A stretch of DNA of 64,000 nucleotides from Candidatus Saccharimonadota bacterium (GCA_046350755.1 JAXLZV010000001.1:11510-75509); one strand, 5' to 3'; positions 5,805 through 49,965 are shown, counted from the first letter of the stretch. Numbers and translations are program-made. The notes: a model not told the origin generated them from the letters alone.

Positions 5805-5827
5805 ATATCCATAGTATACTAGGTGAA

Positions 5828-9244: not shown

Positions 9245-9268
9245 TATTTTTCGATTCACTTCACTTAC

Positions 9269-10750
9269 ATGCCCAACTCAACCCCTCAAAAACGCCCCAA
9301 GCGACTTGTCACTGTCGATGGCATTCGCTATTCGCTTGATACTGGCGATAGTGTTGGCCCAGCTCCTCGCCGACCTGCCCAGCCACACCCGGTATCGGTG
9401 AGCGAGACGCAGTCGAAATCAGTCATTCCGGCGAGTCCACCAGAGAAAAAGCCCTCGCTGCGTCGATCGCGGAGAAATGTGCGGGTCCCCGAACAGCCCT
9501 TGCCAGCGGCCGTTAAGCTAACCAGCCATAACCAGGCCGTCATGCATCCTGATCCAAAATTGCGGACCGCTCAGTTATTACACCCTCACAATGTTTCGCA
9601 TCCGGCCCTACCACTGCCGACCAGTCGCCAGCGACCGGCTGGCAAATTATCAATCTGGCAGTCAGTCGTCAAGCCGTCACTAACAGAGACTCATGATCGT
9701 CGCACAGTCTGGGCAAGTATCGGTATCGCTTTGTTGTCGCCAATAACGTGGCTACTCTTAGCGCTGCCGGCAGTAGTGATTTTTGCTGCCGATATACGGC
9801 GTGAGTCGGTCGGCAAGATCTTCGCCAGCACATCGAGCTGGATACTCGCCCAAACGCCGACAAGTATTTTGACCTTGCTAGCCGTATTCTCGGTGCTGCT
9901 CGGCATTGTTTGGCTAGTCCGTCACTCGCTCGTACTGGTTGCCTACGGTGTGCAGGTCCGACGCATCGACAATCGTCTGGTGTCAGGCCATCAGCTCTGG
10001 TGGCAGACCCTGGCGAAGATTTCGCGTCTGGTTTTGGTGGCACTTCTCGACGGCTTAATGGTGGTGACGGTTTGTATGCTGGCTGGACTGGCATTGCAAT
10101 GGATACTTGGTTCGGCAACACAAAATATGGCCGTCTGGTGGAGCCTTTTCTTCAATCTCACTGTATTCATGCTGGTGGCACTATTGTGGCTGCTCGCGAC
10201 ACATCGCCCACTGACGCGTGTCATGCTGTCAATCACTAATCGACCGGCCAGTTTTTTGGTGGTGAAGGGCTTCGGGCTGATTTTTCGCAACTGGATTCGT
10301 GCACTCGGTCTTGGCTTTGTCTGGCTGGCAGCAGCTGGTTTGACAGCCTTCTTGTTAGCCGGCATTTCTTGGGCGACAACAATATATGGGTTGGTCCAGA
10401 TCACTACTTCGATCGGACGGGTCGCGCTCTGGGCGGTGTCAGGTAGTCTGCTGATTTTTATTTTGACGAGTTTCACTGTTTGGTCGAACGGCTATTGGCC
10501 ACGGGCTTATCACATGCTCGCGCACCGAGCTTACCCGCGCACCGTGTCGCGGTTTATGGCCGATGATCCACGAGTGAAATCACGCCTAAAAACCATCCTT
10601 CACGTCAGTCTCATCATTATTGCCTACTTACTGATGGTTACAGCCTTACTCTGGTACGCCCGTCCGATTATTACCCAGCGGCTCGATACCGTGCAGCAAA
10701 ATGTACCGGACACCCTGGATAAGCTGCTTCCCAAGCTCCAATCACGTTAA
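9269..10750 (+). CDS. hypothetical polytopic membrane protein with basic/Pro-rich N-terminal tail
   Basis: 493-aa ORF with a disordered N-terminal 130 aa followed by at least eight predicted TM helices. No catalytic motif recognised. Confidence 0.5.
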   Translation: MPNSTPQKRPKRLVTVDGIRYSLDTGDSVGPAPRRPAQPHPVSVSETQSKSVIPASPPEKKPSLRRSRRNVRVPEQPLPAAVKLTSHNQAVMHPDPKLRTAQLLHPHNVSHPALPLPTSRQRPAGKLSIWQSVVKPSLTETHDRRTVWASIGIALLSPITWLLLALPAVVIFAADIRRESVGKIFASTSSWILAQTPTSILTLLAVFSVLLGIVWLVRHSLVLVAYGVQVRRIDNRLVSGHQLWWQTLAKISRLVLVALLDGLMVVTVCMLAGLALQWILGSATQNMAVWWSLFFNLTVFMLVALLWLLATHRPLTRVMLSITNRPASFLVVKGFGLIFRNWIRALGLGFVWLAAAGLTAFLLAGISWATTIYGLVQITTSIGRVALWAVSGSLLIFILTSFTVWSNGYWPRAYHMLAHRAYPRTVSRFMADDPRVKSRLKTILHVSLIIIAYLLMVTALLWYARPIITQRLDTVQQNVPDTLDKLLPKLQSR

Positions 10751-10802
10751 TGCGGTAGAGCTATATTGACGAATAATGCAAAAAGGAGTACAGTAAACCT
10801 AC

Positions 10803-10822
10803 AAAGCCCCGGCGGCTTTTTT
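10803..10822 (+). terminator. weak intrinsic terminator-like hairpin
   Basis: AAGCC-CCGGC-GGCTT followed by TTTTTT, between the membrane-protein gene and secE. Confidence 0.3.
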
Positions 10823-10838
10823 AGATTACGAGAGACTT

Positions 10839-11024
10839 ATGCAGCACGTACGACGTTACATCTCCAGCTCGATTGAAGAGCTCAAACGTGTCGTCTGGCC
10901 GACCCGCCAACAAGCGATTTCGCTGACGATCATCGTTTTGGTGTTTACGGCTATTGTAGCCGCCTATCTCTCTGGTCTTGATCTGATATTCCGCAATGCT
11001 TTGCAGCGATTGCTCGCGCTCTAA
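10839..11024 (+). CDS. secE: preprotein translocase subunit SecE (short monoderm-type)
   Basis: A 61-aa single-TM protein with a conserved C-terminal helix, sitting immediately upstream of nusG as in the canonical secE-nusG-rplKA arrangement. Confidence 0.75.
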   Translation: MQHVRRYISSSIEELKRVVWPTRQQAISLTIIVLVFTAIVAAYLSGLDLIFRNALQRLLAL

Positions 11025-11050
11025 TTCACTAACTTATTCGAAGGACGGCT

Positions 11051-11590
11051 ATGAAAACCGCTCACCCCGACGCCCACTGGTACGTCATCCACACCTACTC
11101 AGGTTATGAAGATCAGGTTGCTCAAAACTTGAAGCATCGAGTTGATACGCTTGGTCTGAAAGACAAGGTGTTTGATGTGATTGTGCCAAAAGAAAACCAG
11201 ATTGAAATCAAGAATGGTAAGCGTCGCGTCGTCGAGCGTAAGATTTTCCCAGGCTATATCCTGGTAAATATGCACGTCACCGAAGACTCATGGTACATCG
11301 TTCGCAATACGCCGAATGTTACTGGTTTTGTTGGCACAGGTACGACGCCAAGTCCGATGAGTCCAGATGAGATCAAAGTAATCCAGAAACGCATGGGGGT
11401 TGAAGAGCCGAAGTTCCAGATTGATTACTCGATTGGTGAGCTGGTCAATATCACTGATGGTCCGTTTAAGGGCTTTGATGGTCAGATTGCTGAGATCGAC
11501 GAGTCGAAGGGTAAGATTAAGGTCTTAGTCTCAATGTTTGGTCGTGAGACCCCAGTCGAGCTTGATAGCTTGCAGGTAAAGAAAGTTTAA
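11051..11590 (+). CDS. nusG: transcription termination/antitermination factor NusG
   Basis: NGN domain plus C-terminal KOW motif (GELVNITDGPFKGFDGQIAEID); conserved position. Confidence 0.85.
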   Translation: MKTAHPDAHWYVIHTYSGYEDQVAQNLKHRVDTLGLKDKVFDVIVPKENQIEIKNGKRRVVERKIFPGYILVNMHVTEDSWYIVRNTPNVTGFVGTGTTPSPMSPDEIKVIQKRMGVEEPKFQIDYSIGELVNITDGPFKGFDGQIAEIDESKGKIKVLVSMFGRETPVELDSLQVKKV

Positions 11591-11647
11591 ACTAAGCACT
11601 GTGGGAGGCGACCCAGTCGCCGCTCGTACCACACAAGGAGTAGAACT
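11591..11647 (+). promoter_or_regulatory. rplK leader with GTGGGAGGC..CACAAGGAG motif (possible L1 autoregulatory site)
   Basis: A conserved motif is shared with the rplA leader at 12083..12139 (CTGTGGGAGGC / CTCGTGGGAGGC, then ACCACAAGGAG-N5-ATG). Confidence 0.3.
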
Positions 11648-12082
11648 ATGGCAGAAGCTAAGAAAATCACCGCTAAACTGAAGATGGTCATTCCGGCCGG
11701 AGGAGCAACACCAGCTCCACCAGTTGGCTCGGCCCTTGGTCAGCACGGTGTCAATATGATGGATTTTATCAATGCCTTCAATGACAAGACGAAGGATATG
11801 AAAGGCGCGCAGTGTCCTACTAAAATCTATATCTATGAAGACAAGAGTTTTACATTTGAAGTGAAGGGTACGCCAGCCAAGACACTGATTAAGCAGGCCC
11901 TCGGCATCCAGAAGGCCAGTGGTGTTCCGAATAAGGATAAAGTTGGTAAGCTGACCGATGCACAGTTGACCGAAATCGCTGAAAAGAAGATGGCAGACTT
12001 GAACGCCAATGACATCGAGGCTGCTAAGAAAGTAATCGCCGGCACCGCTCGGTCGATGGGCGTAGAAGTCGAAGCAAAGTAA
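11648..12082 (+). CDS. rplK: 50S ribosomal protein L11
   Basis: Conserved L11 N-terminal [12 protein letters not shown] and C-terminal domains; strong AAGGAG RBS. Confidence 0.9.
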
Positions 12083-12139
12083 ACAATTAACTCGTGGGAG
12101 GCCGCTGACTAGCTGGCTGCATGCACCACAAGGAGAACT
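12083..12139 (+). promoter_or_regulatory. rplA leader, second copy of the GTGGGAGGC..CACAAGGAG motif
   Basis: See the rplK leader; same motif order and same spacing to the ATG. Confidence 0.3.
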
Positions 12140-13099
12140 ATGATGGTAAAAAAAGTCGAAGATACCCCCGAAGTAACCCCTGATGAAGTGGCGATGATTG
12201 AAGAAGTCGCCGAAGAGATTACTGAAGAAGAAGCCGCTGGCGCTGAAGGCAGCGCAGCCAAGCCAACCAAAACTGCTAAGGCTGGTAAGCGCAGTGCCAA
12301 AGCCGCTAAAGAAGCCGAAGAGCTCGACGAGAAAGCTGCTCGTAAGGCCGAGATTGCTGCTAAAGAAGACGCTCCGCGCCCCAAGCAGAAGCCCCGCGTC
12401 AAGAAATACTCAAAGAACCAAAAGGCCATGCGGGCCGAGATCGAAGCCGACAAGCTTTATGACGTAACCGGTGCAGTTGCTCTGCTGAAAAAGATTTCCA
12501 AGGCTAAGTTTGATCCGACTCTCGAGATTCATGTCCGTCTCGATATTGATCCCCGCCAAGCTGATCAGATGGTGCGAGCCTCAACTGTACTACCGGCCGG
12601 CAGCGGTAAGATTGTTAAGGTCGCCGTTTTGACCACTGATGACAAGAAGCTTGATGCTGCTGTCAAAGCTGGTGCCATTAAGATCAGCCAGGAAGACCTC
12701 CTGACCGCGATCGGAAAGGGCGTCTTTGACTTTGATACCCTGGTTGCCACGCCTGATATGATGCCACAGCTTGGTCGGCATGCTAAGGCGCTCGGTCCAA
12801 AGGGGCTCATGCCATCGCCGAAGAGTGGTACTGTCACGGCTGACCCAGCCAATGCAGTCTCCGAGATCCAGAAGGGTCGACTGGAAGTGAAGAATGATGC
12901 CAATGGTATCGTCCACGCTGCGCTCGGTAAGCTGTCATTTACAGCTGAAGACTTAGAAAGTAACGTCCGGGCTGTTCTCACCTGCGTCCAGCAGAATCGT
13001 CCCAGCGGCGTGAAGGGGACCTACGTTCGGTCGATTTCATTGTCGGCCACCATGACGCCAGGAGTGAAAATTGATCCAGCCGAAATGGCCAAGAAGTAA
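12140..13099 (+). CDS. rplA: 50S ribosomal protein L1 with an ~85-aa K/A/E-rich N-terminal extension
   Basis: The L1 core runs from KKYSKNQKAMRAEIEADKLYD.. to the end. A strong AAGGAGA RBS precedes the ATG at 12140, so the low-complexity extension appears to be translated. Confidence 0.85.
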   Translation: MMVKKVEDTPEVTPDEVAMIEEVAEEITEEEAAGAEGSAAKPTKTAKAGKRSAKAAKEAEELDEKAARKAEIAAKEDAPRPKQKPRVKKYSKNQKAMRAEIEADKLYDVTGAVALLKKISKAKFDPTLEIHVRLDIDPRQADQMVRASTVLPAGSGKIVKVAVLTTDDKKLDAAVKAGAIKISQEDLLTAIGKGVFDFDTLVATPDMMPQLGRHAKALGPKGLMPSPKSGTVTADPANAVSEIQKGRLEVKNDANGIVHAALGKLSFTAEDLESNVRAVLTCVQQNRPSGVKGTYVRSISLSATMTPGVKIDPAEMAKK

Positions 13100-13117
13100 G
13101 CCTTCTTCTGGTTCGCT

Positions 13118-13147
13118 AAAACGCCCCGTCATCGGGGCGTTTTGCTT
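13118..13147 (+). terminator. intrinsic terminator after rplA
   Basis: ACGCCCCG-TCAT-CGGGGCGT followed by TTTGCTT. Confidence 0.6.
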
Positions 13148-13218
13148 ATGCTTGGTAATAGCTTCGGCCGGCCGGTACACTGGTAGAGTCTTGTACCTAT
13201 AGAGAAAGAGGTATCCAA

Positions 13219-14022
13219 TTGCCTGAGATGGATTTTGCCCAATGGTCACGGCAAGAACTCATTCGATGGCTTGACCACACACTTCTCGTTCAGAGCCATC
13301 GGCACGTCCGTGAAGCTCAGCGCGAGCTTCGGCGACGACCGACTGGTGTTCTTTCTGATCAGGAAATTCGGAGCGCAATGGAGCGCGATGATATCGTGAT
13401 TGAGCCTTTCGCGCCCCGACAACTCAACACAGCCAGCTATGACATCACGCTGGGTGAGTGGTTTTACATCTGTGAGGCCATGCCCTTCGAAGACAATTTC
13501 AACCCTTGGGATCCAGAAGATGTCGCCAGGTATTACAAGGGGCCGTATCAGGCTCTGACCAACCAAGAATGGTCTGATCAGCACCGCGGAGGGCGGCTGT
13601 GGAAGAATATTCCGCCGAATGCACCGATTATCGTCTTGCGGCCAGGAGAATGTATTCTGGGTCACACAGTCGAATTTATCGGTGCTCGTCGCGACGCGGT
13701 CACCATGATGCACGCTCGCTCGTCGATCGGGCGGGTGAATATCTCAACCTGCGATGATGCAGGCTGGGGCGACATCGGCTACATCAATCGCTGGACGATG
13801 GAAATTCGCAATAAGAATAATGCAGTTGTTCCACTGGTGGTTGGTGAACGTATGGGTCAGATCATCTTTTTTGCAGCCGGTCCAACCGATCGAAGTTATG
13901 GCAACGAAGGGCATTACCAGTCGTCTCGCAACCTGGATGAGCTCCGTCAGAACTGGAAGCCGGCAGACATGTTGCCGCGCTTGCAGCTCGATACGGATGG
14001 GCTAGGAGTGAACCATGGATGA
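13219..14022 (+). CDS. dcd: dCTP deaminase family protein with N- and C-terminal extensions
   Basis: Blocks VLSDQEIRSAMERDDIVIEPF..SYDITLGEWFY, GRSSIGRVNI, DAGWGDIGYINRWTMEIRN and GERMGQIIFF match the Dcd/dUTPase-like fold. The start may be the ATG at 13228. Confidence 0.75.
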   Translation: MPEMDFAQWSRQELIRWLDHTLLVQSHRHVREAQRELRRRPTGVLSDQEIRSAMERDDIVIEPFAPRQLNTASYDITLGEWFYICEAMPFEDNFNPWDPEDVARYYKGPYQALTNQEWSDQHRGGRLWKNIPPNAPIIVLRPGECILGHTVEFIGARRDAVTMMHARSSIGRVNISTCDDAGWGDIGYINRWTMEIRNKNNAVVPLVVGERMGQIIFFAAGPTDRSYGNEGHYQSSRNLDELRQNWKPADMLPRLQLDTDGLGVNHG

Positions 14023-14686
14023 CATTTTCTATGATAGTAAATTCTGGCATGGGCCACCGCGGTTTATCGCCGTCGAGGGTCCAGATGGTGCTGGCAAGTC
14101 TACGTTGGTGACAGGCCTGGTGACCTGGATGCGCGAGGAGCTTGGGCTTGAGGTTGAGCAACTTTTGGAGCCTGGTAGTGGTCGATTGGCTAGCGAGCTT
14201 CGGGCAATTCTCTTGATGGGCGAGATGGACATCAGTACATACGAAGAGATCATGCTCATGACCGCCGCGAGAGTGGATACTCGTCTTCGCCATGTTCAGC
14301 CGGCGCTTACAACTGGTAAGTGGGTGATCTGCGATCGAGCCGAACTTTCCACCATCGTATACCAAGGGTTTGCTCGTGATGAAGGGGCGATGCTGTTTGC
14401 AAAGCAGCAACAGGATATGATTCGAGCCCAGGTAAGACGGGCTGATTTATATCTAGTGCTACAGCTCGCATATGATAAAGCGCAGCTGCGCCTATTGGGG
14501 ACTGGCAAGCTACCGGATCGCTTTGAGAGTGCTGATGTGCGCTTTCGGCAGCGAGTCAGTTTGGGTTTTGAGCTAATCGACAATCTTGTTCCTGGAGAAT
14601 ACCGGATGGCTCACATTGATGCCAGTGTAACCCCCGAGGAGCTGGTCCAGCTTGCCATCCTGGCTATTCAGGCTGAGTGCTCCTAA
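14015..14686 (+). CDS. tmk: thymidylate kinase
   Basis: P-loop FIAVEGPDGAGKSTLV and the DR motif VICDRAELSTIVYQG. The start overlaps the dcd stop. Confidence 0.8.
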   Translation: MDDIFYDSKFWHGPPRFIAVEGPDGAGKSTLVTGLVTWMREELGLEVEQLLEPGSGRLASELRAILLMGEMDISTYEEIMLMTAARVDTRLRHVQPALTTGKWVICDRAELSTIVYQGFARDEGAMLFAKQQQDMIRAQVRRADLYLVLQLAYDKAQLRLLGTGKLPDRFESADVRFRQRVSLGFELIDNLVPGEYRMAHIDASVTPEELVQLAILAIQAECS

Positions 14687-14781
14687 TTCATTCATCCCAG
14701 TTGAAAGGCTGGGATTTTTATTGTGCCAAATCTATGCTATAATGCCGTGGATCTTGCACCTAAAAGAAGGAGAAGAGCTAC

Positions 14782-15939
14782 ATGGGCTACGGATGCCGTA
14801 CATTGGCAGATTCGCTTTGTCATAATCGGGCTGGTGAGTTTCGCCTCACCACCTTCGAGATAACGTTGCCGAGGATGGTCTTGGCTGAGTTCAACACCCA
14901 CACCATTCTTTCGCGCAACAGCGCCAGCTCGCGCGCGATTCCGGTGAAGAAGCAACTGCGTCGTGTGCTTGATGACCCGTATGTCCCTTTTTATTGGGGG
15001 AAGAATGTGCCGGGCATGCAGGCACCGGAGCCGATTCCCGAGGATCGCATTCCTGAGGCTTCGCGAATCTGGCTGCTAGGTCGGAATCGAGCTATCATTA
15101 CCACCCTCGCTGAACTGCTGGGTGAAGTCAAGCTCGATTGGGCCTGTCGGGAGACTATCGACTGCGATCAGCATGACATCACGCGGTTGTCGGATGAAGT
15201 GCAGGAGCAAGCCCTCCGCCAATTGGTAGATCTGGCAAGCGAACTCCTTGACGATGAGTCTGAGGCTGATCTTATTCTCAATGTTCACAAGCAGCTTGCC
15301 AATCGGCTGCTCGAGCCCTTCATGTGGCACACCATTATCACGACCGCAACTGAATGGCGGAATTTCTTTGCGCTGCGTTCACACAATGATGCTCAGCCTG
15401 AGATCCGTGTCATCGCTGAGATGATGCGAGATGTCTATGGCATGGAGCTCCCAGGTGACGCTTATAATGATAAGATGCGCTACCAGCCATATCGTGAATG
15501 GTCCGAAGCTGGTTATACGGCCTCAGAGCCAGTTGAGCTGGCGGCCGATGAGTGGCATACGCCGCTTCTGACTCGTGATCAGATGAATAGATATGGCATC
15601 GATTGGGATGTGGCGCGCGATGTCTCGGTTGGACGCTGTGCTCGAGTAAGTTATCTGACTCACGATGGGCGAGAAGATTGGGAAGAGGATGTTTTTCTGG
15701 CTCGTGAACGCTTGCAGCCCAGCGGGCATATGTCACCATTCCAGCATGTTGGCCGACCGATGCGTGATGATGAACTCAAGCCGGTTGTCTATTTCTACGA
15801 AGAGGCTGGTGATATGCAGATCGGTTGGGACGGCGAATATAGCGCTTGGTCTGGCAATTTTCAGGGTTTCATGCAGTACCGCAAGATGTTGCCGCATGAG
15901 TTCGATTTCTCAGAAGTTCTGGTACAGAATCACACATAA
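14782..15939 (+). CDS. ThyX-fold (flavin-dependent thymidylate synthase family) protein, divergent and extended
   Basis: FRLTTFEITLPRMVLAEFNTHTILSRNSASSRA aligns to the ThyX [35 protein letters not shown], and LANRLLEPFMWHTIITTATEWRNFFALRSHNDAQPEIR to [36 protein letters not shown]. The RHR arginines are replaced by T-H-T, there is an insertion of about 100 aa, and a C-terminal extension of about 165 aa. Confidence 0.5.
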   Translation: MGYGCRTLADSLCHNRAGEFRLTTFEITLPRMVLAEFNTHTILSRNSASSRAIPVKKQLRRVLDDPYVPFYWGKNVPGMQAPEPIPEDRIPEASRIWLLGRNRAIITTLAELLGEVKLDWACRETIDCDQHDITRLSDEVQEQALRQLVDLASELLDDESEADLILNVHKQLANRLLEPFMWHTIITTATEWRNFFALRSHNDAQPEIRVIAEMMRDVYGMELPGDAYNDKMRYQPYREWSEAGYTASEPVELAADEWHTPLLTRDQMNRYGIDWDVARDVSVGRCARVSYLTHDGREDWEEDVFLARERLQPSGHMSPFQHVGRPMRDDELKPVVYFYEEAGDMQIGWDGEYSAWSGNFQGFMQYRKMLPHEFDFSEVLVQNHT

Positions 15940-15947
15940 GCACTCGG

Positions 15948-15976
15948 CCCCACCTTACTAGGTGGGGTATTTTTTT
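15948..15976 (+). terminator. intrinsic terminator after the thyX-like gene
   Basis: CCCCACC-TTACTA-GGTGGGG followed by TATTTTTTT. Confidence 0.65.
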
Positions 15977-16027
15977 ATTGATGATGCTAAATTTATGAAT
16001 AATTACCTTTATTCCCCCTCATACCCC

Positions 16028-16057
16028 TTGTGCTAGAACTATCACCAAGCCTATAAT
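16028..16057 (+). promoter_or_regulatory. candidate sigma70-type promoter for the giant NHL gene
   Basis: TTGTGC, an 18-nt spacer, then TATAAT, about 70 nt upstream of the ATG at 16130. Confidence 0.35.
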
Positions 16058-16129
16058 AGACCCTATAGTTTTTGATGAGGGTAGTAATGAACACTGCAGT
16101 AGGTGGTGAGTAGCACTTGGTTGTAAGGT

Positions 16130-19100
16130 ATGAATAAAGTCAGAAACACAGACCCCACCAAGTCAACCAATTCAAATCTGAGGCGCATCCATGACATCCG
16201 TCATCCCCAGTCCTCAGACCAACCAACTAACCGACCCCGCCGTGTCGGTCGTCTGTTATCATGGCGACTCCCAAACCGTCGAGTCCTCCGAGCTCGTCTA
16301 GTTACCATTACAAACAAATGGACCATCACTACAGCCCGTCTGCGCCAGTTGGCACTCGGTGGTCTGTCGTTGTCTAAGCTAGATCTTCGTAAGTTGTCAG
16401 TAGCTCTCGATCCCCACAAATTCTCTCTTCCTACCCTCGATCCCCGCAAGCTCGACTTTTACAAGCTTCATCCCCGCAATCTATCCCGCGCCAAACTGAC
16501 TACCGGTGCTAAGACTATCCATCATCACACTAAAAACTTCCTCCATTCACCCCGAGCAGTCATCCAGGCTGTCTTAGTGCTGGCCCTAGTTCTTAGCTTT
16601 GTCCAGTTTGCGCGGGCGATTACTCCGACCATCACCACCCAAGCTGCGACTAACCTAGACTGGAATAAAGCTGCTCTCAATGGTCAAGTCAACGATGATC
16701 ATGGTGAGCAAGTTACCGAGACTGGCTTTGAGTATGGCCCTGATACCAACTATGGCGACACCACTCAAGCTACGGCTGAGTATAAATTCTCTAGCATTAT
16801 TGGTGGTGCTTTAGCTGATGGTACTACGAATCGACCTGGTAGCATCACCACCGACAGTGCGGGCAATGTCTATGTGGCCGATACTGATAACCACCGCATC
16901 CAGAAGTTTGACTCATCTGGTACTTTCATTACTAAATGGGGCACCAATGGCTCCGGCGATGGTCAGTTTAGCAATCCTCAAGGCATCGCCACCGACAGTG
17001 CGGGCAATGTCTATGTGGCCGATACTGATAACCACCGCATCCAGAAGTTTGACAGTGCTGGTACTTTTATTGCCAAGTGGGGTGGTAGAGGGGCAGCCAA
17101 TGGGAAGTTTAACTATCCCCAAGGCCTCACCACCGACAGCGCTGGCAATGTTTATGTGGCGGATACATATAACCGCCGCATCCAGAAGTTTAATAGCACT
17201 GGCACGTATATCTCCCAGTGGGGCACCAATGGCTCCGGCGATGGTCAGTTTAGCAATCCTCAAGGCATCGCCACCGACAGTGCGGGTAATGTCTATGTGG
17301 CGGATACCAATAACCACCGCATCCAGAAGTTTAATAGCGCTGGCACATATATCTCGCAGTGGGGAACGAATGGCTCCGGTGACGGTCAGTTCAACCAACC
17401 CCAAGGCCTTACCACCGACAGTGCTGGCAATGTCTATGTGGCGGATACTAGTAACCACCGCATCCAGAAGTTCGACAGCGCCGGTACCTACCTCACCCAG
17501 TGGGGCACGGGTGGCTCCGGCGATGGTCAGTTCTACTCTCCCACCGGCATCACCACCGACAGCGCGGGTAATGTCTATGTGGCGGATAGGGACAACCACC
17601 GCATCCAGAAGTTTAATAGCTCTGGTACTTTTATTACCAAATGGGGTAATTATGGCTCCGGCGATGGTCAGTTTGACTACCCCCAAGGCCTCACCACCGA
17701 CAGCGCGGGTAATGTCTATGTGGCGGATAGTGGTAACAACCGTATCCAGAAGTTTGATAGTACTGGTAACTTCATTACTAAGTGGGGTAAAAATGGTGGT
17801 GATGGGAGCTCTGGCTTTGGCAATGGTGAGTTCGACTATCCCTCCGGCCTCACCACCGACAGCGCGGGTAATGTCTATGTGGCGGATACATATAACTACC
17901 GCATCCAGAAGTTCGACTCGTCCGGTACTTTCATCACTAAATGGGGTAATCCTGGCTCCGGCGATGGTCAGTTCTACTCCCCTCAAGGCCTCACCACCGA
18001 CAGTGCTGGCAATGTTTATGTGGCGGATACCAATAACCACCGCATCCAGAAGTTTGACTCATCCGGTACTTTTATTACCAAATGGGGTAATTATGGCTCC
18101 GGTAATGGTCAGTTTAGCAATCCCCAAGGCCTCACCACCGACAGTGCTGGCAATGTCTATGTGGCGGATAGGGACAACTCCCGCATCCAGAAGTTTGATA
18201 GTGCCGGTACGTATATTTCCCAGTGGGGCAGTCAAGGCTCCGGCGATGGTCAGTTTGACTACCCCCAAGGCCTCACCACCGACAGCGCGGGTAATGTCTA
18301 TGTGGCGGATACCAATAACCACCGCATCCAGAAGTTTGATAGCTCTGGTACTTTTATTACCAAATGGGGTAATCCTGGCTCCGGCGATGGTCAGTTCTAC
18401 GAGCCTCAAGGCCTCACCACCGACAGCGCGGGTAATGTCTATGTGGCGGATAGGAACAACCACCGCATCCAGAAGTTCACCCTGGTCGCTAATAGTGATA
18501 CCTTTTCAAGTCAAATAGAGAATCTCAGTTGTGATACTAGCTACCACTACCGCGCTTATGCTACTAATGCCAGTGGTACGAGTTATGGTACCGATCAAGT
18601 CTTCACCACCCCATCATGCGTTCCCTTAGCTCCAAGTAATCTGCGGGTCGAAGTCCAGTCCTTTAATAGTATTGAGGTTGTTTGGGATCGACCGGATTAT
18701 ACTGGTTCAGCTGGCATTGACCATTACATCATCTACTACCGCAAAGCCGGCACTGGTAGCTGGCAACAGGTTAGTAGTAATAATGATGCAGAATCTGTCA
18801 TTGTATCCGGCCTGGAGCAGTTTACTAGCTACGACATGAAAGTCAGTGCCGTAAACTATGACGGCCATGAGAGCCCAGCTACCGCCGAAGTCTCAGAGAC
18901 TACTCCGCGAGTTAACTTTGGCCTAGTCCGTAACTGTCAGGATTTACAGAATATTAATAACAACCTGAATGTTAGCTACGAGCTAGTTAATGACATCGAC
19001 TGCTCCGATACCATCAACTGGAATGCTGGTGCGGGCTTTGTCCCTCTAGGAGGTTGCCAGTATGATTTTTATAGTTTGTCAGAACCAACTCCCTTTAAAG

Positions 19101-22100
19101 GAATCCTAGCTGGTAATAACCATGTTATTGCTGGCCTCTATGCCGACACCACGGCTAGTCCGGGCTGCGTGACAGCTGGTCTATTTGGTAATACTCGTGG
19201 TGCTCTCGTCCAAGACCTCAAACTAACGGATCCAGTCTTTAAGGGTGGCTATGTTGGTCTGGTAGCTACCGCCAACAATACCGACATCACTAATGTCCAA
19301 GTCTATAATGGAGCCTACGATGGTACGTCAGGTTTTGGTGGTGGTGGGATTGCTGGCTTTATGTTCTTTGATGACGCTGCTAGCCACGATCTAGCTAAGA
19401 ATAGCTTTACCGGTAGTATTGTAGCTAGTTGTGATACGAGTACTATGGGGATGATTGGTGGGTTATATAGCTATTTAGTAGCATTTGGCCAGAATACAAT
19501 CAATCTCCACGATTCCTACGCCGATGCAGATATTAGTGTGAACTCAGCTAATGCTTGTTTGGACGTAAGTGGTATTGGTGGTGGGATTGGTTATATCGTG
19601 GCTGGCAATACTGCTATGAGTGTCAATAATATTTACGCTGCCGGTAGTCAGAATGTCTCTATTACCGAAAACGCTAACGGCCAGTTCAACTACCCCCAAG
19701 GCCTCACCACCGACAGTGCTGGCAATGTCTATGTGGCCGATACTGATAACCACCGCATCCAGAAGTTTGACTCATCTGGTACTTTCATTACTAAATGGGG
19801 CACCAATGGCTCCGGCGATGGTCAGTTTAGCAATCCTCAAGGCATCGCCACCGACAGTGCGGGCAATGTCTATGTGGCCGATACTGATAACCACCGCATC
19901 CAGAAGTTTGACAGTGCTGGTACTTTTATTGCCAAGTGGGGTGGTAGAGGGGCAGCCAATGGGAAGTTCAACTACCCCCAAGGCATCACCACCGACAGCG
20001 CGGGTAATGTCTATGTGGCCGATACTGATAACCACCGCATCCAGAAGTTTGACTCATCTGGTACTTTCATTACTAAATGGGGCACCAATGGCTCCGGCGA
20101 TGGTCAGTTTAACTCTCCCACCGGCATCACCACCGACAGCGCGGGTAATGTCTATGTGGCGGATACATATAACTACCGCATCCAGAAGTTTGATAGCTCT
20201 GGAACTTTTATTACCAAATGGGGCACCAATGGCTCCGGCAACGGTCAGTTCTACTCCCCTCAAGGCCTCACCACCGACAGCGCGGGTAATGTCTATGTAG
20301 CAGATACATATAACCACCGCATCCAGAAGTTTAATAGCGCTGGCACATATATCTCGCAGTGGGGAACGAATGGCTCCGGTGACGGTCAGTTCAACCAACC
20401 CCAAGGCCTTACCACCGACAGTGCTGGCAATGTCTATGTGGCGGATACTAGTAACCACCGCATCCAGAAGTTTAATAGCTCTGGCACGTATATCTCCCAG
20501 TGGGGAAGCCAGGGTTATGTTAGCTGGACTAATATTGGTGGCCTAATTGGTGTCGCAAATTATTATTCGGCTTCCAATAGTCTAACCAACAGCTTCGCCC
20601 ATGTCGCTCAAACGATTAATGTTGGCGACCAGGTGGCCGGTGCCCTAGTCGGTGCGGCCTACTATGATACGCCACCGACTATCACCGGCAACTACGCCGA
20701 TACCACGCTGGCTGGTCGAGCCAACTGCTTTGGGGGTGGCGAGAGCGAAGACACCGCCAAATGTACTGGTATTGCTGGTCAACCCAATTATTTCTACAAC
20801 AACCATACCAACCCACCGCTTGATCAGTGGAATTTCACGGATCTTTGGGAAACCACACCAACGCTACCAGTCTTCTCAGCTGTAGCCGTCAACACTCTAA
20901 CTCCCATCTCAGCTGAGCGCCTAGCCCGCTACAATCCACCCGTTCCACCAACCCCAACCCCAGTTCCAGCTACTCCAATTAGCCCCAGCCCAACACCAGA
21001 ACCAACCCCAGATACCAGTGGTAGTCGTAGTGCTGCCATCACCCAGACTACCAACCAGACACCTCCACCCCCAGCCGAGCCGGGTGGTATCCTGGGGGTT
21101 CTAAAAGACATTGTCCGCGCCATTCCGGAACCAGTCCTGCGCAGCTTCCCCTACGTCGTGGTTGGTCTCATGGGGCTACTATCTCTAGCTATGTTGTTTG
21201 AAATGTATCGTCAGTCTCGACGCTTAGCTCAACTTAATCTCCTGCTTGCCAAACAAGCCAAAGTTGCCGAGGATCGTGATACTTTCTGGCATCTCGCTGC
21301 CAACTATCTACGCTCACCAATTACTCTCTTAGTTGGTAGTGTCGATCTGATGACTGACCCTAGTCCAAAGACTAAAGCTCAACCAACTACCGCTCCAGCT
21401 AAACTGACCCTTGGTCTGACCAGCCTGGTTCATGATATGCAGACTAAGGTCATGAAGATTATGGACCAGATCGAAACTAGCCAGAGCTTACAGGCCATTC
21501 GCTGGCCAGCTCGAACTCAGCCTCGCCACCTCTTAACTAACTGGCGTTTCTGGGTGCCCCTGACTGTCACCGGTCTACTGATTGCCCTGTCTAACTATGT
21601 CGCCCAAAACTTCCGTAACATTGAAGTCTCCACTCTTAATCTAGCCGTCCAAGCCTTGCTGTTTATTGTTGTTACCATTGCTATCTACTGGGTGGTTGGT
21701 GCTCTCGGCCTAACTCGTAGTAAGGTGACTCGGGCTCAAACTCAATTGGATCGTCAGGCTAAAGACCTAGATAAGGCTCGAATGCAGCTTATTGACGAGA
21801 CCGCCACTGTCCTATCTAGTGACATCACTCGACTAGATGCCATGCTAGCGAAGCTCCCAGCTAAGGAGCCAATGCTGCTAGCTATGCAAGAGGGAAGTCG
21901 TCGATTACATGAGATTGTATCGAGTTTCCAGCAACTGATCTTAGCTCAGAACAACCGTCTTGATACCATCTCGCCAGCTAGCGCCTCAACCGACCTTAGC
22001 CAAGCTATTGCTAGTAGCTTAAATGAACTAGCCGCCACCATTAAGTCTAAAGACATCACCGTTGTCCAGTCTGGCACCATAGCTGGAGCTGTACCTGGTA

Positions 22101-22441
22101 GTGAGCCAGTTATTAAGCGTGTTATTGGGAGTATTCTAGAGAATGCCATCCAGTTTAGCCCTAAAGGCGGTCAAGTTACCATCCAATCTCAGCAAACTGG
22201 CAGTGGTAGTAGTGTTACCATCACCGATAAGGGTCCTGGTGTGAGTAAGACTCAACAGGCACATATCTTCCAGCTCTTTACCAAAGCTGATGGCAAGAAT
22301 GCCCTACAAATGGACCATGATGGACTGGGGGTTGATCTCTATCTCGACAAGCAGATCATGCAACACTTACAGGGTGGCATTGACCTCCAGACTAGTAACC
22401 ACGGGACAGCTGTAACACTGACCTGGCCAGCAGTGGGGTAG
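16130..22441 (+). CDS. giant (2103 aa) membrane protein with 18 NHL repeats (three 6-bladed propellers), FN3, a GLUG-like beta-helix region, a Pro/Thr linker, TM helices and a C-terminal histidine-kinase-like module
   Basis: The basic N-terminal tail is followed by a signal-anchor TM (VIQAVLVLALVLSFVQFA). There are 12 plus 6 NHL repeats of about 40 aa (GNVYVADxxNHRIQKFxSxG), and an FN3 domain (LAPSNLRVEV..YDMKVSAVN). The GGLIG and GIGGGIG tracts are the GLUG-like region. After a TM segment near aa 1670 comes an H-box-like FWHLAANYLRSPITLLVG. The C-terminus has an N-box ILENAIQFSP, G1 ITDKGPGV and G2 DGLGVDLYL. Confidence 0.65.
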   Translation: MNKVRNTDPTKSTNSNLRRIHDIRHPQSSDQPTNRPRRVGRLLSWRLPNRRVLRARLVTITNKWTITTARLRQLALGGLSLSKLDLRKLSVALDPHKFSLPTLDPRKLDFYKLHPRNLSRAKLTTGAKTIHHHTKNFLHSPRAVIQAVLVLALVLSFVQFARAITPTITTQAATNLDWNKAALNGQVNDDHGEQVTETGFEYGPDTNYGDTTQATAEYKFSSIIGGALADGTTNRPGSITTDSAGNVYVADTDNHRIQKFDSSGTFITKWGTNGSGDGQFSNPQGIATDSAGNVYVADTDNHRIQKFDSAGTFIAKWGGRGAANGKFNYPQGLTTDSAGNVYVADTYNRRIQKFNSTGTYISQWGTNGSGDGQFSNPQGIATDSAGNVYVADTNNHRIQKFNSAGTYISQWGTNGSGDGQFNQPQGLTTDSAGNVYVADTSNHRIQKFDSAGTYLTQWGTGGSGDGQFYSPTGITTDSAGNVYVADRDNHRIQKFNSSGTFITKWGNYGSGDGQFDYPQGLTTDSAGNVYVADSGNNRIQKFDSTGNFITKWGKNGGDGSSGFGNGEFDYPSGLTTDSAGNVYVADTYNYRIQKFDSSGTFITKWGNPGSGDGQFYSPQGLTTDSAGNVYVADTNNHRIQKFDSSGTFITKWGNYGSGNGQFSNPQGLTTDSAGNVYVADRDNSRIQKFDSAGTYISQWGSQGSGDGQFDYPQGLTTDSAGNVYVADTNNHRIQKFDSSGTFITKWGNPGSGDGQFYEPQGLTTDSAGNVYVADRNNHRIQKFTLVANSDTFSSQIENLSCDTSYHYRAYATNASGTSYGTDQVFTTPSCVPLAPSNLRVEVQSFNSIEVVWDRPDYTGSAGIDHYIIYYRKAGTGSWQQVSSNNDAESVIVSGLEQFTSYDMKVSAVNYDGHESPATAEVSETTPRVNFGLVRNCQDLQNINNNLNVSYELVNDIDCSDTINWNAGAGFVPLGGCQYDFYSLSEPTPFKGILAGNNHVIAGLYADTTASPGCVTAGLFGNTRGALVQDLKLTDPVFKGGYVGLVATANNTDITNVQVYNGAYDGTSGFGGGGIAGFMFFDDAASHDLAKNSFTGSIVASCDTSTMGMIGGLYSYLVAFGQNTINLHDSYADADISVNSANACLDVSGIGGGIGYIVAGNTAMSVNNIYAAGSQNVSITENANGQFNYPQGLTTDSAGNVYVADTDNHRIQKFDSSGTFITKWGTNGSGDGQFSNPQGIATDSAGNVYVADTDNHRIQKFDSAGTFIAKWGGRGAANGKFNYPQGITTDSAGNVYVADTDNHRIQKFDSSGTFITKWGTNGSGDGQFNSPTGITTDSAGNVYVADTYNYRIQKFDSSGTFITKWGTNGSGNGQFYSPQGLTTDSAGNVYVADTYNHRIQKFNSAGTYISQWGTNGSGDGQFNQPQGLTTDSAGNVYVADTSNHRIQKFNSSGTYISQWGSQGYVSWTNIGGLIGVANYYSASNSLTNSFAHVAQTINVGDQVAGALVGAAYYDTPPTITGNYADTTLAGRANCFGGGESEDTAKCTGIAGQPNYFYNNHTNPPLDQWNFTDLWETTPTLPVFSAVAVNTLTPISAERLARYNPPVPPTPTPVPATPISPSPTPEPTPDTSGSRSAAITQTTNQTPPPPAEPGGILGVLKDIVRAIPEPVLRSFPYVVVGLMGLLSLAMLFEMYRQSRRLAQLNLLLAKQAKVAEDRDTFWHLAANYLRSPITLLVGSVDLMTDPSPKTKAQPTTAPAKLTLGLTSLVHDMQTKVMKIMDQIETSQSLQAIRWPARTQPRHLLTNWRFWVPLTVTGLLIALSNYVAQNFRNIEVSTLNLAVQALLFIVVTIAIYWVVGALGLTRSKVTRAQTQLDRQAKDLDKARMQLIDETATVLSSDITRLDAMLAKLPAKEPMLLAMQEGSRRLHEIVSSFQQLILAQNNRLDTISPASASTDLSQAIASSLNELAATIKSKDITVVQSGTIAGAVPGSEPVIKRVIGSILENAIQFSPKGGQVTIQSQQTGSGSSVTITDKGPGVSKTQQAHIFQLFTKADGKNALQMDHDGLGVDLYLDKQIMQHLQGGIDLQTSNHGTAVTLTWPAVG
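16846..18480 (+). repeat. NHL repeat array 1 (12 units of about 120 bp, coding)
   Basis: Tandem 120-nt coding repeats. The segment 16846..17160 is about 96% identical to 19705..20019, and 17310..17470 is identical to 20310..20470. Confidence 0.9.
19690..20500 (+). repeat. NHL repeat array 2 (6 units), near-duplicate of parts of array 1
   Basis: See above; the two duplicated segments lie at constant offsets of 2859 and 3000 bp. Confidence 0.9.
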
Positions 22442-22582
22442 AGGTGGGTGTAAAGGTGAGCTATTTAGTTGTCGGTAATGTTTAGTTTGCGGCATTAATA
22501 TTGAAAGTATTGGCTGGTAATGATTAACCGTAGTTGGTCTGCATAGAGGGAGCTTGGCAGGCAATTTTTTTGATAAAAAATT

Positions 22583-22969
22583 TTACTTAACAGCGGCCTG
22601 AATAGTTTTTACAATCTCGCCAGGAGTTGTGGTAGCTTTTACGATATGATCGAGCACATTGTATTGCTTGATGGCGGCCACAGTTTCTGGATCGTTCATG
22701 TTCGTTAAAGTGATTATCTTGTACTTGTTGCCATTAGGTAGAGCACGAATGCGCTCAAGAGCCTCTAGCCCAGACATTCGGGGCATCATCATATCGAGTA
22801 AAATGATATCGGGATGGTAAGTTTTTAGTAGTTCCAGGCCTTCAATACCATCACCTGCTACACGGACTTTATAACCGGCTTGGCGTTCAAAGGCCTTTGT
22901 GTACATGGTTGATATAGCGACATCGTCTTCGATAAGGGCGATGTTAACTATTTTAGGTGAATTGCTCAT
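22583..22969 (-). CDS. single-domain response regulator (CheY-like receiver only)
   Basis: The start is reset to MSNSPKIVNIALIEDD. Receiver signatures DD, phospho-acceptor D in IILLDMMMP, T in ITLTNM and K in IVKATT. Convergent with the giant gene. Confidence 0.75.
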   Translation of the reverse strand: MSNSPKIVNIALIEDDVAISTMYTKAFERQAGYKVRVAGDGIEGLELLKTYHPDIILLDMMMPRMSGLEALERIRALPNGNKYKIITLTNMNDPETVAAIKQYNVLDHIVKATTTPGEIVKTIQAAVK

Positions 22970-23014
22970 GCTTAGATTGTATACTAGGATATACATAAAT
23001 AGAAGTAGTGGCCG

Positions 23015-23043
23015 TTGACCATCTTAATGAAACCTGTTATTAT
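23015..23043 (+). promoter_or_regulatory. sigma70-type promoter for rplJL
   Basis: TTGACC, a 17-nt spacer, then TATTAT. Confidence 0.55.
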
Positions 23044-23199
23044 GAAAAAGTACGAACCGAAGACAGGCGCTGGTTAGCTCAAGCTAAACCTTAATTTGCT
23101 CCCGAGGCGATGACGAATCTACATTTTAGATAAGTCCCACTTCATGTCTTCTTGGCTCGCTGCAAAGAAGATTTTTCATTAACAATTAAAGGAGTCAGT
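23044..23199 (+). promoter_or_regulatory. rplJ 5' leader (candidate L10(L12)4 autoregulatory leader)
   Basis: A 155-nt untranslated leader between the promoter and the AAAGGAG RBS, as in L10 leaders of other bacteria. The structure was not folded here. Confidence 0.35.
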
Positions 23200-23733
23200 A
23201 TGGCAAAGACTCGTGCACAGAAGGAACAAGACCTGCAAAAGCTGGTCGACAACCTTGATAGTGCAAAGCTTGCCGTTCTGGCTGACTACCGTGGCCTCGA
23301 TGTGCCAGCGATTCAGGAACTCCGTGGACAACTGCGCGAACAAGGTATTACCTTTACCGTCGCCAAGAACACGTTGCTCAAGAAAGCTGCTGCTAAGAGT
23401 GCTAAGGAGATTACCGAAACCGATGCTTTTGTCGGGCCGATGGCTGTGGCCTTTGGTACTGATGAAGTAGAGGCTGCCAAAATCGTCGCTGATTTCACCA
23501 AGGATCATCCTGAATTGGAGATCGTCGGTGGTATCGATGAGGCTGGCGCGATTATCTCCAAAGAAGCTGTTATGGCGCTGGCGAAACTGCCGAGCCGCGA
23601 GCAACTTCTTGCGCAGGTGGTCGGTACGGTTGCTGCTCCACTCTCGGGCATGGTTCGAGTGATGAATGGCAATCTGTCAGGACTGGTGTACGCACTACAA
23701 GCTGTTAAAGATAAGAAAGAAGCCGCTGCTTAA
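23200..23733 (+). CDS. rplJ: 50S ribosomal protein L10
   Basis: The start is reset to [12 protein letters not shown] after the AAAGGAG RBS. Conserved L10 N-terminal domain. Confidence 0.9.
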
Positions 23734-23758
23734 GCGCTTCACTAATAGGAGATATATT

Positions 23759-24184
23759 ATGGCTGAAGAAGCTAAGAATGATGCAGTAGAAGAAAAGAAA
23801 GAAGTTCCAGCGAAGTTTGAAAAGCTCGTTGCTGAACTCGATAAGATGAGTGTCCTCGATCTCTCAGAGTTCGTGAAGACCCTCGAGGATCACTACGGTG
23901 TGTCAGCCGCTGCCCCTGTGGCCGTTGCTGGCGCTGCCGCTCCAGCTGAAGCTGCTGAAGCTGCCGAAGAGAAGAGCCAGTTCAACATTATGCTGCAGGC
24001 TGCTGGTGATAAGAAGATCGAAGTCATTAAGGCCGTGCGTGAAATCACTGGTCTTGGTCTGGCTGAGTCCAAAGGACTCGTCGACGGCGCTCCTAAGATG
24101 GTGAAAGAGAACGCCACGAAGGAAGAGGCCGAAGAGGCAAAGACCAAGCTCGAAGCGGCTGGTGCCACTATCGAACTTCAATAA
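23759..24184 (+). CDS. rplL: 50S ribosomal protein L7/L12
   Basis: The start is reset to MAEEAKND after the AGGAGA RBS. An Ala-rich hinge is followed by the conserved C-terminal domain [28 protein letters not shown].. Confidence 0.9.
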
Positions 24185-24312: not shown

Positions 24313-24858
24313 ATGACACAATCCAATACAAATGACGCGCGATTAATGCAACTCGCGGCACAACTCAAAGCCGCTGAGGAGCAGGTGAGACGCATTCATG
24401 ACCAACTCGACGCACTTGGCATTAAAGCCGATGAGTTGCCCGAGCCGAGTAAAGTCACACCACGGCAAGCGGTTGAGACTGAAGCGCATGGGATCGGCAA
24501 GATCATCGAAGGTGTTTTTGATGGCCAGAATATGATCGGTCCAAACGATAAGACGTATCCGGTGCCGGCCAATTATGCTTCCAAGTCAAAACTGGTGGAG
24601 GGCGACATCCTCAAGCTCACCATCTCCGAGGATGGGAGTTTTATCTACAAGCAAATTGGTCCCGTTGAGCGTAAGAAACTGATCGGCCGCATCGTCATGC
24701 AGGACGGCACCTATATGGTGGAGGCTGGCGGCAAACTGTATCACGTATTGTTTGCTAGTGTGACGTACTTCAAAGCTCAGCCGGGCGACGAAGTCACCGT
24801 CGTGATTCCAGGTGATCAGGTAGCCTCGTGGGCGGCTATCGAAGCCGTGATTGGCTAA
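24313..24858 (+). CDS. hypothetical protein
   Basis: 181-aa ORF with an RBS and an N-terminal coiled-coil-like segment. No motif recognised. Confidence 0.5.
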   Translation: MTQSNTNDARLMQLAAQLKAAEEQVRRIHDQLDALGIKADELPEPSKVTPRQAVETEAHGIGKIIEGVFDGQNMIGPNDKTYPVPANYASKSKLVEGDILKLTISEDGSFIYKQIGPVERKKLIGRIVMQDGTYMVEAGGKLYHVLFASVTYFKAQPGDEVTVVIPGDQVASWAAIEAVIG

Positions 24859-27981: not shown

Positions 27982-28476
27982 GTGAATAAAACGCAAAAAA
28001 AGCCGTCCACTGTTGGGAAAGAAGCCGCCCAGGTAGGACGTTTTGGTATAGTCGGTATCGCCAATACCGCGATTGACTTCATTGTTCTCAATATTATTTC
28101 CCGAGCTACCGGTTGGTCAGATGTCGTGGCCAATGTCCCCGCCGTGATGGTGGCGATGACCTTCAGTTTTTTTGCCAATCGTTATTTTGTCTTTCACAGT
28201 GGGCAGACCAAGAGTATCGGCCGTCAAGCACTCGAGTTCTTCCCGATAACTGCCTTTGGCCTCATTGTAATTCAAGGAGTGGTAATTTGGTTTTTTGAGT
28301 CGGTTTGGCTAGGACCTGTTAATTTTGGCGTGGCGGTCGCCCAAGCCATTGGCGTGCTCAACTTTGTCGATAAACAATTCGTGATCACCAATGGCGTCAA
28401 AGCTGTCGCCACCCTGGCGAGTCTGATCTGGAACTATCTCATGTATAAGAAAGTAGTATTCAAGGACCAGACGTAA
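27982..28476 (+). CDS. GtrA-family small membrane protein (polyprenyl-phosphate sugar handling)
   Basis: A 4-TM protein of about 160 aa, with GIVGIANTAIDFIVLN and FANRYFVFH typical of the GtrA family. Confidence 0.7.
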   Translation: MNKTQKKPSTVGKEAAQVGRFGIVGIANTAIDFIVLNIISRATGWSDVVANVPAVMVAMTFSFFANRYFVFHSGQTKSIGRQALEFFPITAFGLIVIQGVVIWFFESVWLGPVNFGVAVAQAIGVLNFVDKQFVITNGVKAVATLASLIWNYLMYKKVVFKDQT

Positions 28477-49946: not shown

Positions 49947-49965
49947 CATAGCCGGACTAAGTCTT

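Follow-up and report, generated by a model that had tools for sequence, protein, structure and literature searches.

A giant Saccharibacteria membrane sensor of a split-DHp histidine-kinase family with a clade-wide one-turn relocation of the DHp1 histidine

We analyzed a 64,000-nucleotide stretch of DNA from a Candidatus Saccharimonadota bacterium (GCA_046350755.1 JAXLZV010000001.1:11510-75509; hereafter the window), in which an earlier note, made from the sequence alone, had pointed to a very large open reading frame (ORF). That ORF is present as claimed, with 2103 codons and an ATG start at 16130..22441 on the + strand (the strand of all features of this ORF below). It encodes a giant membrane sensor of a histidine-kinase family that we call split-DHp, after its divided dimerization and histidine-phosphotransfer (DHp) helices. 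The architecture of the family is a transmembrane (TM) helix, a HisKA-type helical pair that carries the histidine (DHp1), a TM hairpin, a second helical pair that lacks a histidine (DHp2), and a catalytic and ATP-binding (CA) domain. In the clade to which the window protein belongs, the canonical position on DHp1 holds no histidine, and an invariant histidine, H1721, is found one helical turn away. We read the protein as a giant cell-surface sensor that signals to a neighboring single-domain receiver through H1721 as a register-shifted phospho-histidine, a reading to which we give slightly better than even odds (about 0.55). The earlier note had proposed a large extracytoplasmic sensor with a non-canonical phosphorelay, or else a pseudokinase scaffold, behind it, and all the evidence gathered fits that description; computation cannot separate a kinase from a pseudokinase.

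A split kinase module with a relocated histidine

The cytoplasmic module begins at TM2 (aa 1672-1690, 21143..21199), placed by hydrophobicity and AlphaFold and continuous with the helix that follows it. DHp1 (aa 1695-1795, 21212..21514) is a HisKA-derived helical pair with an invariant RDTFWHLAANYLRSPITL motif, recognized by Pfam HisKA matches to this segment in relatives that keep the canonical histidine; it contains H1721 (21290-21292) and, at the canonical histidine position, N1725 (21302-21304). Beyond the TM3-TM4 hairpin (aa 1807-1861, 21548..21712), which is predicted to bring the chain back into the cytoplasm, lie DHp2 (aa 1870-1940, 21737..21949), in which T1893 (21806-21808) occupies the canonical histidine position, and the CA, or HATPase_c, domain (aa 1953-2101, 21986..22432), with its N box (N2005), G1 box (D2033-G2035-G2037), F box and G2 box (G2065-G2067). 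The motifs quoted in the earlier note were all found where it had placed them (FWHLAANYLRSPITLLVG at aa 1719, ILENAIQFSP at 2002, DKGPGV at 2033, DGLGVDL at 2064, GGLIGVA at 1470 and GIGGGIGYIVAGN at 1148).

Pfam recognized HATPase_c at aa 1993-2101 with 52.3 bits (cut-off 26.4), and the CA residues N2005, D2033/G2035/G2037, F2047/F2050 and G2065/G2067 scored as invariant. The G2 box had been called degenerate, and the alignment bears this out, the third Gly being absent family-wide. Neither Pfam nor NCBIfam matched HisKA to the window protein, whether it was searched whole or in sub-segments. A profile built from five members of the family aligned to the DHp and CA domains of WalK/VicK with E 2e-25 over the second helical pair and CA (aa ~1863-2091), setting ATVLSSDI opposite the canonical SHELRTPL and hence T1893 at the phospho-His position. 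Because this canonical position varies over 20 genomes (T, E, A, S or L), we regard DHp2 as a His-less DHp.

An AlphaFold model of aa 1641-2103 (mean predicted local distance difference test score, pLDDT, 69) shows TM2 and the H-box-like segment as one continuous helix (aa 1673-1742) with a partner helix (1757-1782) ahead of TM3, and a second continuous helix running from TM4 (aa 1833-1907) with a partner of its own (1916-1940) ahead of an alpha/beta domain. In Foldseek, the model matched the DHp-CA structures of DivL, HK853, WalK, CusS and RetS at probability 1.0, with DivL as the top match. Taken together, Pfam, the profile and AlphaFold establish that the ATP-binding-like domain suspected at the C-terminus is part of a genuine DHp plus CA histidine-kinase fold: the CA fold is intact, and both helical pairs are homologous to HisKA-type DHp. 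The H-box-like segment reported at aa 1719 does lie in a long helix continuous with TM2, and the canonical phospho-His is absent from both pairs. An intact HATPase fold and a helical H-box-like segment are the opposite of what the earlier note had named as the mark of a pure adhesin.

A word-indexed search yielded only five relatives; this reflected its limited sensitivity, as became clear when 1.84 billion cluster representatives were searched exhaustively with a profile, giving 952 at E<=1e-30, many of them spanning the whole module. Most family members are about 600 aa long with the module starting near residue 180, and giants reach 4656 aa. The relatives have a canonical H-box on DHp1, such as FIALASHYLRTPLT, and in five canonical members Pfam HisKA scored this segment at 19.5-26.9 bits against a cut-off of 26.9; only P0072 (26.9 bits) attains the gathering threshold, the four others scoring 19.5-26.0 bits (P0079 26.0, P0071 22.7). 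HATPase_c starts about 200 aa downstream of the HisKA match in canonical members; in an ordinary kinase, the distance is about 40 aa. The window protein scored 336 bits over positions 4-433 of a hidden Markov model of the canonical tier (tier 2). We found no description of the split-DHp arrangement, or of Saccharibacteria/Patescibacteria kinases of this type, in the literature searched.

Giant ectodomains recur independently in the canonical-His tier (P0091, 4656 aa; P0117, 3989 aa; P0114, 3665 aa; P0146, 2495 aa); the one NCBI name attached to this tier, 'Bacteriovoracaceae', could stem from erroneous binning. A related species (locus L004) carries a second giant paralog of 2412 aa (4176-11414), directly after rplJ-rplL, that combines DUF285/BspA-like repeats, fn3, a Gly-rich region with nested NHL blades and the split kinase module, and that has its histidine at the canonical position (ITAHYLNTPVA). 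The equivalent site in the window holds only a 181-aa ORF (24313-24858) with no Pfam matches.

The difference between the two tiers is sharply drawn. Counting from the canonical histidine as position 0, the 95 canonical-tier members all have His at 0 and Tyr at +1, with L, I, V, M or T at -5, never His at -4, and Thr at +4 (94/95; Ser in one). In the window clade, all 35 representatives with a readable motif have Trp at -5, His at -4, Asn at 0 and Tyr at +1, and 34 of the 35 have Ala at +4, with Ser in P0001, the window representative; the H(-4)/N(0) motif recurs in 20 of 20 genome loci of the clade. The corresponding motifs are xSHY[LF]RTP in the canonical tier and FWHLAANYLR[AS]P in the clade. 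Position 0 lies 52 residues from the conserved FPY that opens TM2, in clade members (34/34) and canonical ones (88/89) alike, so there has been no indel and the helix register is unchanged. Fourteen consecutive positions are invariant in the motif R-D-x-F-W-H-[LI]-A-A-N-Y-L-R-[AS]-P among clade members that are 37-52% identical over the module. Twelve positions are fixed in the clade and different in the canonical tier, five of which fall on the DHp1 helix (R1716, W1720, H1721, N1725 and A/S1729).

In a neighbor-joining tree from p-distances, made with no bootstrap values and no outgroup, the clade forms one bipartition (34 of 34). The tree is unrooted, and the shift is read as derived because the canonical position is universal. 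HisKA kinases use an acidic residue at His+1 for kinase activity and a Thr or Asn at His+4 for phosphatase activity (Willett and Kirby, PMC3510030). The old histidine position, N1725, is at +4 of H1721 and the old +4 Thr is now Ala, so the pair of His and Thr or Asn appears to have shifted as a unit. The 'degenerate' state described in the earlier note is not decay but an invariant, clade-wide relocation of the histidine by one turn within the split-DHp family.

The two tiers hardly differ in how well they keep the ATP-binding motifs: the G1 motif DxGxG is present in 46/56 of the shifted clade and 108/121 of the canonical tier, and the N box in 56/56 and 113/121. Relaxed ATP-binding motifs were considered as a pseudokinase signal of the shifted clade and set aside, as similar variants occur in both tiers.

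The genome loci come from a one-genome-per-species scan with two peptides of the C-terminal module, which gave 20 loci. Nineteen are labelled as Candidatus Saccharibacteria, Saccharimonadia or Saccharimonadales metagenome-assembled genomes and one as 'uncultured bacterium', and the shifted-His clade is specific to Candidatus Saccharibacteria. L004 and L006 are from related species, at about 90-94% nucleotide identity over 4 kb.

The partner receiver and a candidate signaling route

A CheY-like receiver had been reported about 140 bp downstream in convergent orientation, and it is there: a 137-aa ORF on the - strand (22583..22996), across a gap of 141 nt, that matches Response_reg with 80 bits and contains no other domain. 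Its true start is likely M10 (22969), judging from its orthologs. The earlier note had called it an orphan, which it is not, since 13 of the 20 related genome loci, like the window, have it next to the sensor gene. It stands directly upstream on the same strand in 11 loci, with a gap of about 4-135 nt in 9 of them and about 750-770 nt in L017 and L023, in both of which a probable frameshift or N-run breaks the kinase ORF; it is downstream and convergent in the window, L004 and L006. Five loci were uninformative on this point owing to contig ends or N-runs. The receiver orthologs were recovered by phmmer at E 1e-30 to 1e-50 over about 130 aa, and the acidic pocket D24/D25, together with D68, T98 and K120, is invariant in 12 of them. 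Conservation of neighborhood and of active-site residues shows a conserved partner that is, by its sequence, chemically competent.

These observations suggest the following route. A surface or polymer ligand, plausibly host-cell envelope material, would bind the ectodomain and move TM2, and this motion would act directly on the DHp1 helix with which TM2 is continuous. The CA domain, anchored beside DHp1 by way of DHp2, would then phosphorylate His1721, the presumed replacement for the canonical histidine (now Asn1725) one helical turn towards the membrane; this leaves Asn1725 at His+4, where HisKA kinases keep the phosphatase Thr or Asn. The phosphoryl group would pass to receiver Asp68, or be removed from it, and the receiver would act on its target by protein-protein contact. 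From the conservation pattern we infer that H1721 is the phospho-acceptor and CA, held next to DHp1 through DHp2, its kinase; that the ligand is host-surface material and works through the TM2-DHp1 helix is likewise a proposal. A more detailed version, in which the phospho-His has moved exactly one turn together with its His+4 site, the two helical pairs may pack as an intramolecular pseudo-dimer giving 'trans-like' phosphorylation within one chain, and the whole serves an episymbiotic bacterium of the candidate phyla radiation (CPR) as a host-contact sensor, is one that we put forward tentatively.

Several observations weigh against phosphorylation of H1721, and most of them favor a pseudokinase, phosphatase or reverse sensor. 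Such a protein would not autophosphorylate; the DHp1 surface would instead dock the receiver and dephosphorylate it, or read its state as DivL does with DivK~P, while another kinase or acetyl phosphate would phosphorylate the receiver, whose state would be coupled to the ectodomain or to other partners. Neither helical pair has a histidine at the canonical position, a feature that also marks DivL and other pseudokinases. Both tiers lack the acid at His+1 that HisKA kinases require for autophosphorylation (PMC3510030), with Tyr in its place in the canonical tier and Leu relative to H1721, and the Asn at +4 of the new histidine is a residue of the phosphatase type. A subclade (L012, L014, L015, L016, L023, P0047-P0049 and P0052) has TNQGxx in place of the G1 motif DxGxG, with Asp changed to Asn and the second Gly lost, and nevertheless keeps FWHLAANYLR, so conservation of FWH..N alone need not require ATP-dependent autophosphorylation; this subclade also keeps the adjacent receiver where that could be assessed (L012 and L023). 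The model of the module has a pTM of 0.51, and the flanks fetched for L001, L003, L018 and L022 show no receiver. DivL and RetS are among the top structural matches, and DivL offers a precedent of a histidine-kinase fold with intact boxes that lacks kinase activity and binds a single-domain receiver (PMC4211667).

Against the pseudokinase account, the +1 acid is missing from the whole canonical-His tier too and so is not specific to the shifted clade, which shows no additional decay of its ATP motifs. Instead of any residue being tolerated, a strictly invariant histidine has been gained (35/35), and the shift of the +4 site is coordinated with it. The receiver is tightly operonic, and the fetched loci contain no other kinase except the L004 paralog. 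On balance we consider an inactive or reverse-acting kinase somewhat unlikely, and prefer signaling through a register-shifted H1721.

Ectodomain, N-terminal tail and genomic setting

The ectodomain, of ~1500 aa, consists of an immunoglobulin (Ig)-like domain with a nested 12-blade NHL unit, an fn3 domain, a Gly-rich domain into which a six-bladed propeller is inserted, and a stalk rich in Pro and Thr. Pfam found 18 NHL repeats (12+6; E 1e-196), whose GNVYVAD units start at aa 245-768 (12 units) and 1198-1433 (6 units) with a period of 47 aa and one unit of 53 aa. The 12 repeats (16826..18484; 141-nt period) lie between the N-terminal half of a ~100-aa Ig-like domain (16619..16825; GFEYG..YG motif) and its C-terminal half (18485..18625; L.C.T.YHYRAYATN..G.SYG). 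When the array was spliced out, its flanks aligned across the junction to uninterrupted ~100-aa Ig-like copies of the L002 protein (E 1e-17 and 2e-16). An fn3 domain, as had been claimed, follows at aa 834-917 (18629..18880; Pfam 52.9 bits, cut-off 25). The six remaining repeats (aa 1182-1462, 19673..20515) form one propeller between two rungs of the Gly-rich domain, which has a proximal part (aa 921-1181, 18890..19672), modeled as beta-rich with pLDDT about 90, and a distal part (aa 1463-1590, 20516..20899) with a conserved cap, YFYNNxTNPPLxxWxF. This array is a clean insertion: NHL-free homologs run through the same point, and the L002/L009 ortholog carries the insertion at the same Gly-rich site. 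The arrays are thus not simply separated by other domains, as had been supposed, but are each nested inside a host domain.

In an AlphaFold model of aa 921-1640, which covers the propeller and the proximal Gly-rich part, the six-unit array forms 24 strands with pLDDT above 90, and it matched the solved NHL propellers of Thin and TRIM71 in Foldseek with a TM-score of 0.88-0.93, a root-mean-square deviation of 1.1-1.7 A and 41-43% identity. The 12-unit array, at 74-83% identity to the modeled one, probably folds as two six-bladed propellers, which would give the three propellers described in the earlier note. Its description of the Gly-rich region as GLUG-like holds for the homologs, which at E 1e-12 to 1e-7 carry PF07581 and PF05342, and for clade members above threshold (P0035, Glug, 23.6 bits; P0053, Peptidase_M26_N, 49.2 bits); the window protein itself gives a sub-threshold GLUG match in the distal part, with 13.8 bits against a cut-off of 20.5. 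We predict from homology that this Gly-rich domain is a member of the GLUG / Peptidase_M26_N group. The Pro/Thr-rich stalk and juxtamembrane segment (aa 1591-1671, 20900..21142) lead into TM2, and the hydrophobic segments at aa 1672-1690, 1807-1825 and 1843-1861 are the three TM helices expected after the linker.

NHL motifs occur in 6 of 21 clade loci, which are the 20 of the genome scan plus the window (window 18, L009 18, L012 10, L023 6, L010 3 and L016 2), and the arrays are accessory in the clade. This variability bears on whether the protein could be a surface adhesin with a vestigial kinase-like tail that serves as a mere membrane anchor. A huge and variable ectodomain of adhesin-type modules (NHL, fn3, GLUG/M26-N and Ig-like), mosaics of gene conversion, and the four clade loci without an adjacent receiver would all suit an adhesin. 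However, it is the ectodomain that varies freely and the cytoplasmic module that is the most conserved part, with 14 invariant positions around H1721 and with N, G1, F and G2 residues invariant at 37-52% identity; the partner receiver is conserved as well. We consider such an adhesin quite improbable.

NHL units 13, 14 and 17 are 100, 97 and 97% identical in nucleotide sequence to units 1, 2 and 4, a pattern we interpret as a mosaic of recent gene conversion or duplication. The same near-identity could allow an assembly artefact, a chimera of at least two genes joined through these units, and because the units are so alike, related assemblies break or carry N-runs inside their NHL arrays. An independent genome (L002/L009) nonetheless encodes a single ORF of 2265 aa with the same architecture, the same order of parts and both nested arrays; the independent contigs P0001, L004 and L006 read across from the final NHL unit to the Gly-rich domain and kinase module; and each array is flanked by the two parts that complete its host domain. 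A chimera is therefore very improbable. In two other loci, L001 (7521-12061) and L003 (1253-5679), gene calling splits the sensor gene into two or three ORFs that overlap or adjoin, or N-runs break it, and these breaks are probably frameshifts or assembly gaps and not real gene splits.

At its N-terminus the ORF begins with a basic tail (aa 1-142, 16130..16555), an open frame of 142 codons whose coding status is uncertain, followed by TM1 (aa 143-163, 16556..16618), a signal-peptide-like segment that ends ARA|I. Its hydrophobic stretch at aa 143-161 agrees with the signal anchor reported near aa 150. The tail is part of the ORF because no ATG, GTG or TTG lies nearer to TM1 than aa 89; the alternative in-frame starts are TTG only, at about aa 74-89. 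Its coding log-odds are 0.03 per codon, compared with 0.26-0.34 for real genes and -0.43 for the two remaining frames of the sense strand. Homologs that are complete begin with a short signal peptide and lack such a tail, and the end of the window TM1 resembles theirs. The metagenome scan gave no relatives covering the 5' tail, so its status rests on weak statistics: it may be a real cytoplasmic extension, or translation may begin at a non-canonical start. The LDPRKL motifs said to be repeated in the tail come down to one exact copy, the rest being the variants LDLRKL, LDPHKF and LHPRNL, and the DNA has no tandem repeat.

Together with dcd, tmk, thyX and the receiver, the sensor gene occupies the interval from rplK-rplA to rplJ-rplL, so that at 11051-24184 of the window the nusG-rplK-rplA / rplJ-rplL cluster, otherwise conserved, is interrupted. 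A strong terminator-like hairpin (9 pairs and a T-run; 15947-15968) directly follows thyX, which suggests a separate promoter for the giant gene within the 190-nt gap. Two neighboring ORFs have unusual extents: that of rplA (12140-13099) is 319 aa long with the L1 domain only from aa 116, reflecting an N-terminal extension or a mis-set start, and the thyX-like ORF (14782-15939) is 385 aa long with a partial Thy1 match at aa 13-218 only. Farther away, a carotenoid-/isoprenoid-type cluster (3045-9244) comprises a UbiA prenyltransferase-GT2 fusion (3045-5132, - strand), a CrtI-like amine oxidase (5675-7333), a polyprenyl synthase (7311-8399) and a squalene/phytoene synthase (8396-9244), and seems unexpected in a reduced CPR genome. 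Two PMT_2-type glycosyltransferases and a gene pair of GH16 and alginate-lyase-like type (28476-32456 and 48783-51513) have roles in the envelope or in polysaccharides and may be connected with the biology of the cell surface.

Significance and comparison with known systems

What defines a histidine kinase is that its phospho-His occupies one set position on the DHp helix adjoining CA. A natural lineage in which the histidine has moved by one turn, with a fixed register, invariant surroundings and a retained receiver, amounts to a ready-made experiment on how strict the geometry of the phospho-site is. The family-wide separation of the H-box pair from the CA pair by a TM hairpin is a wiring scheme that we did not find described in the literature searched. 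Since TM2 runs on into the H-box helix, this scheme matters for the question of how movement in the membrane is relayed to the phospho-site. Throughout the family, automated annotation misses members, HisKA lying at or below its cut-off in five canonical ones and neither helical pair being found in the shifted clade. Saccharibacteria are episymbionts with tiny genomes and few regulators, which makes a 2000-aa sensor with a single-domain receiver a strong candidate for host-contact signaling. The two-component sensor kinase is a known type; here it comes with a family-wide split DHp and a clade-wide one-turn relocation of the histidine, under a giant ectodomain with nested NHL propellers.

The module resembles the HisKA sensor kinases WalK/VicK, HK853 and EnvZ in that DHp2 and CA align to WalK/VicK at E 2e-25 and the fold matches, the N, G1 and F boxes are present, the receiver has a canonical Asp pocket, and DHp1 keeps the H-box context Y-L-R-x-P-x-T. 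It differs from them in that the H-box helix and the CA-bearing pair are separated by a TM hairpin, the CA-proximal pair being His-less. The canonical histidine is Asn with His at -4, the acid at His+1 is missing, G2 lacks its third Gly, and Pfam HisKA is blind to both pairs.

The closest relatives are the canonical-His split-DHp members (P0071, P0072 and P0079; about 600 aa), which share the whole module, the 52-aa spacing from FPY to the H-box and the His-less DHp2. Unlike the window protein, they have the canonical histidine (xSHYLRTP), mostly an ectodomain of only ~150 aa, and no receiver next to them in the four contexts examined. In the split CheA3/CheA4 system of Rhodobacter sphaeroides, a kinase core without a phospho-His phosphorylates a separate His-bearing helical domain. 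That system comprises two polypeptides of the CheA class (HPt plus P3-P5), whereas the window protein has both parts as HisKA-type helical pairs in one membrane protein.

Designed six-bladed Pizza6 propellers, which we take to derive from PknD, also matched the modeled window propeller in Foldseek. PknD of Mycobacterium tuberculosis is a membrane kinase that senses through an extracellular NHL propeller of six blades (PMC3322341). It is a Ser/Thr kinase with one propeller, whereas the window protein has 18 blades nested in other domains and an output of the histidine-kinase type.

DivL of Caulobacter is similar in having a histidine-kinase fold with otherwise intact boxes, no histidine at the phospho-site and a single-domain receiver as partner (PMC4211667). 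Pfam found no PAS domain in the window protein, and its canonical sites hold Asn and Thr, not Tyr, so that the parallel with DivL is one of function only. DivL, by contrast, has Tyr at the site, is cytoplasmic, senses through PAS domains and has a single DHp, whereas the window protein combines an invariant histidine one turn away with a giant ectodomain and a split DHp.

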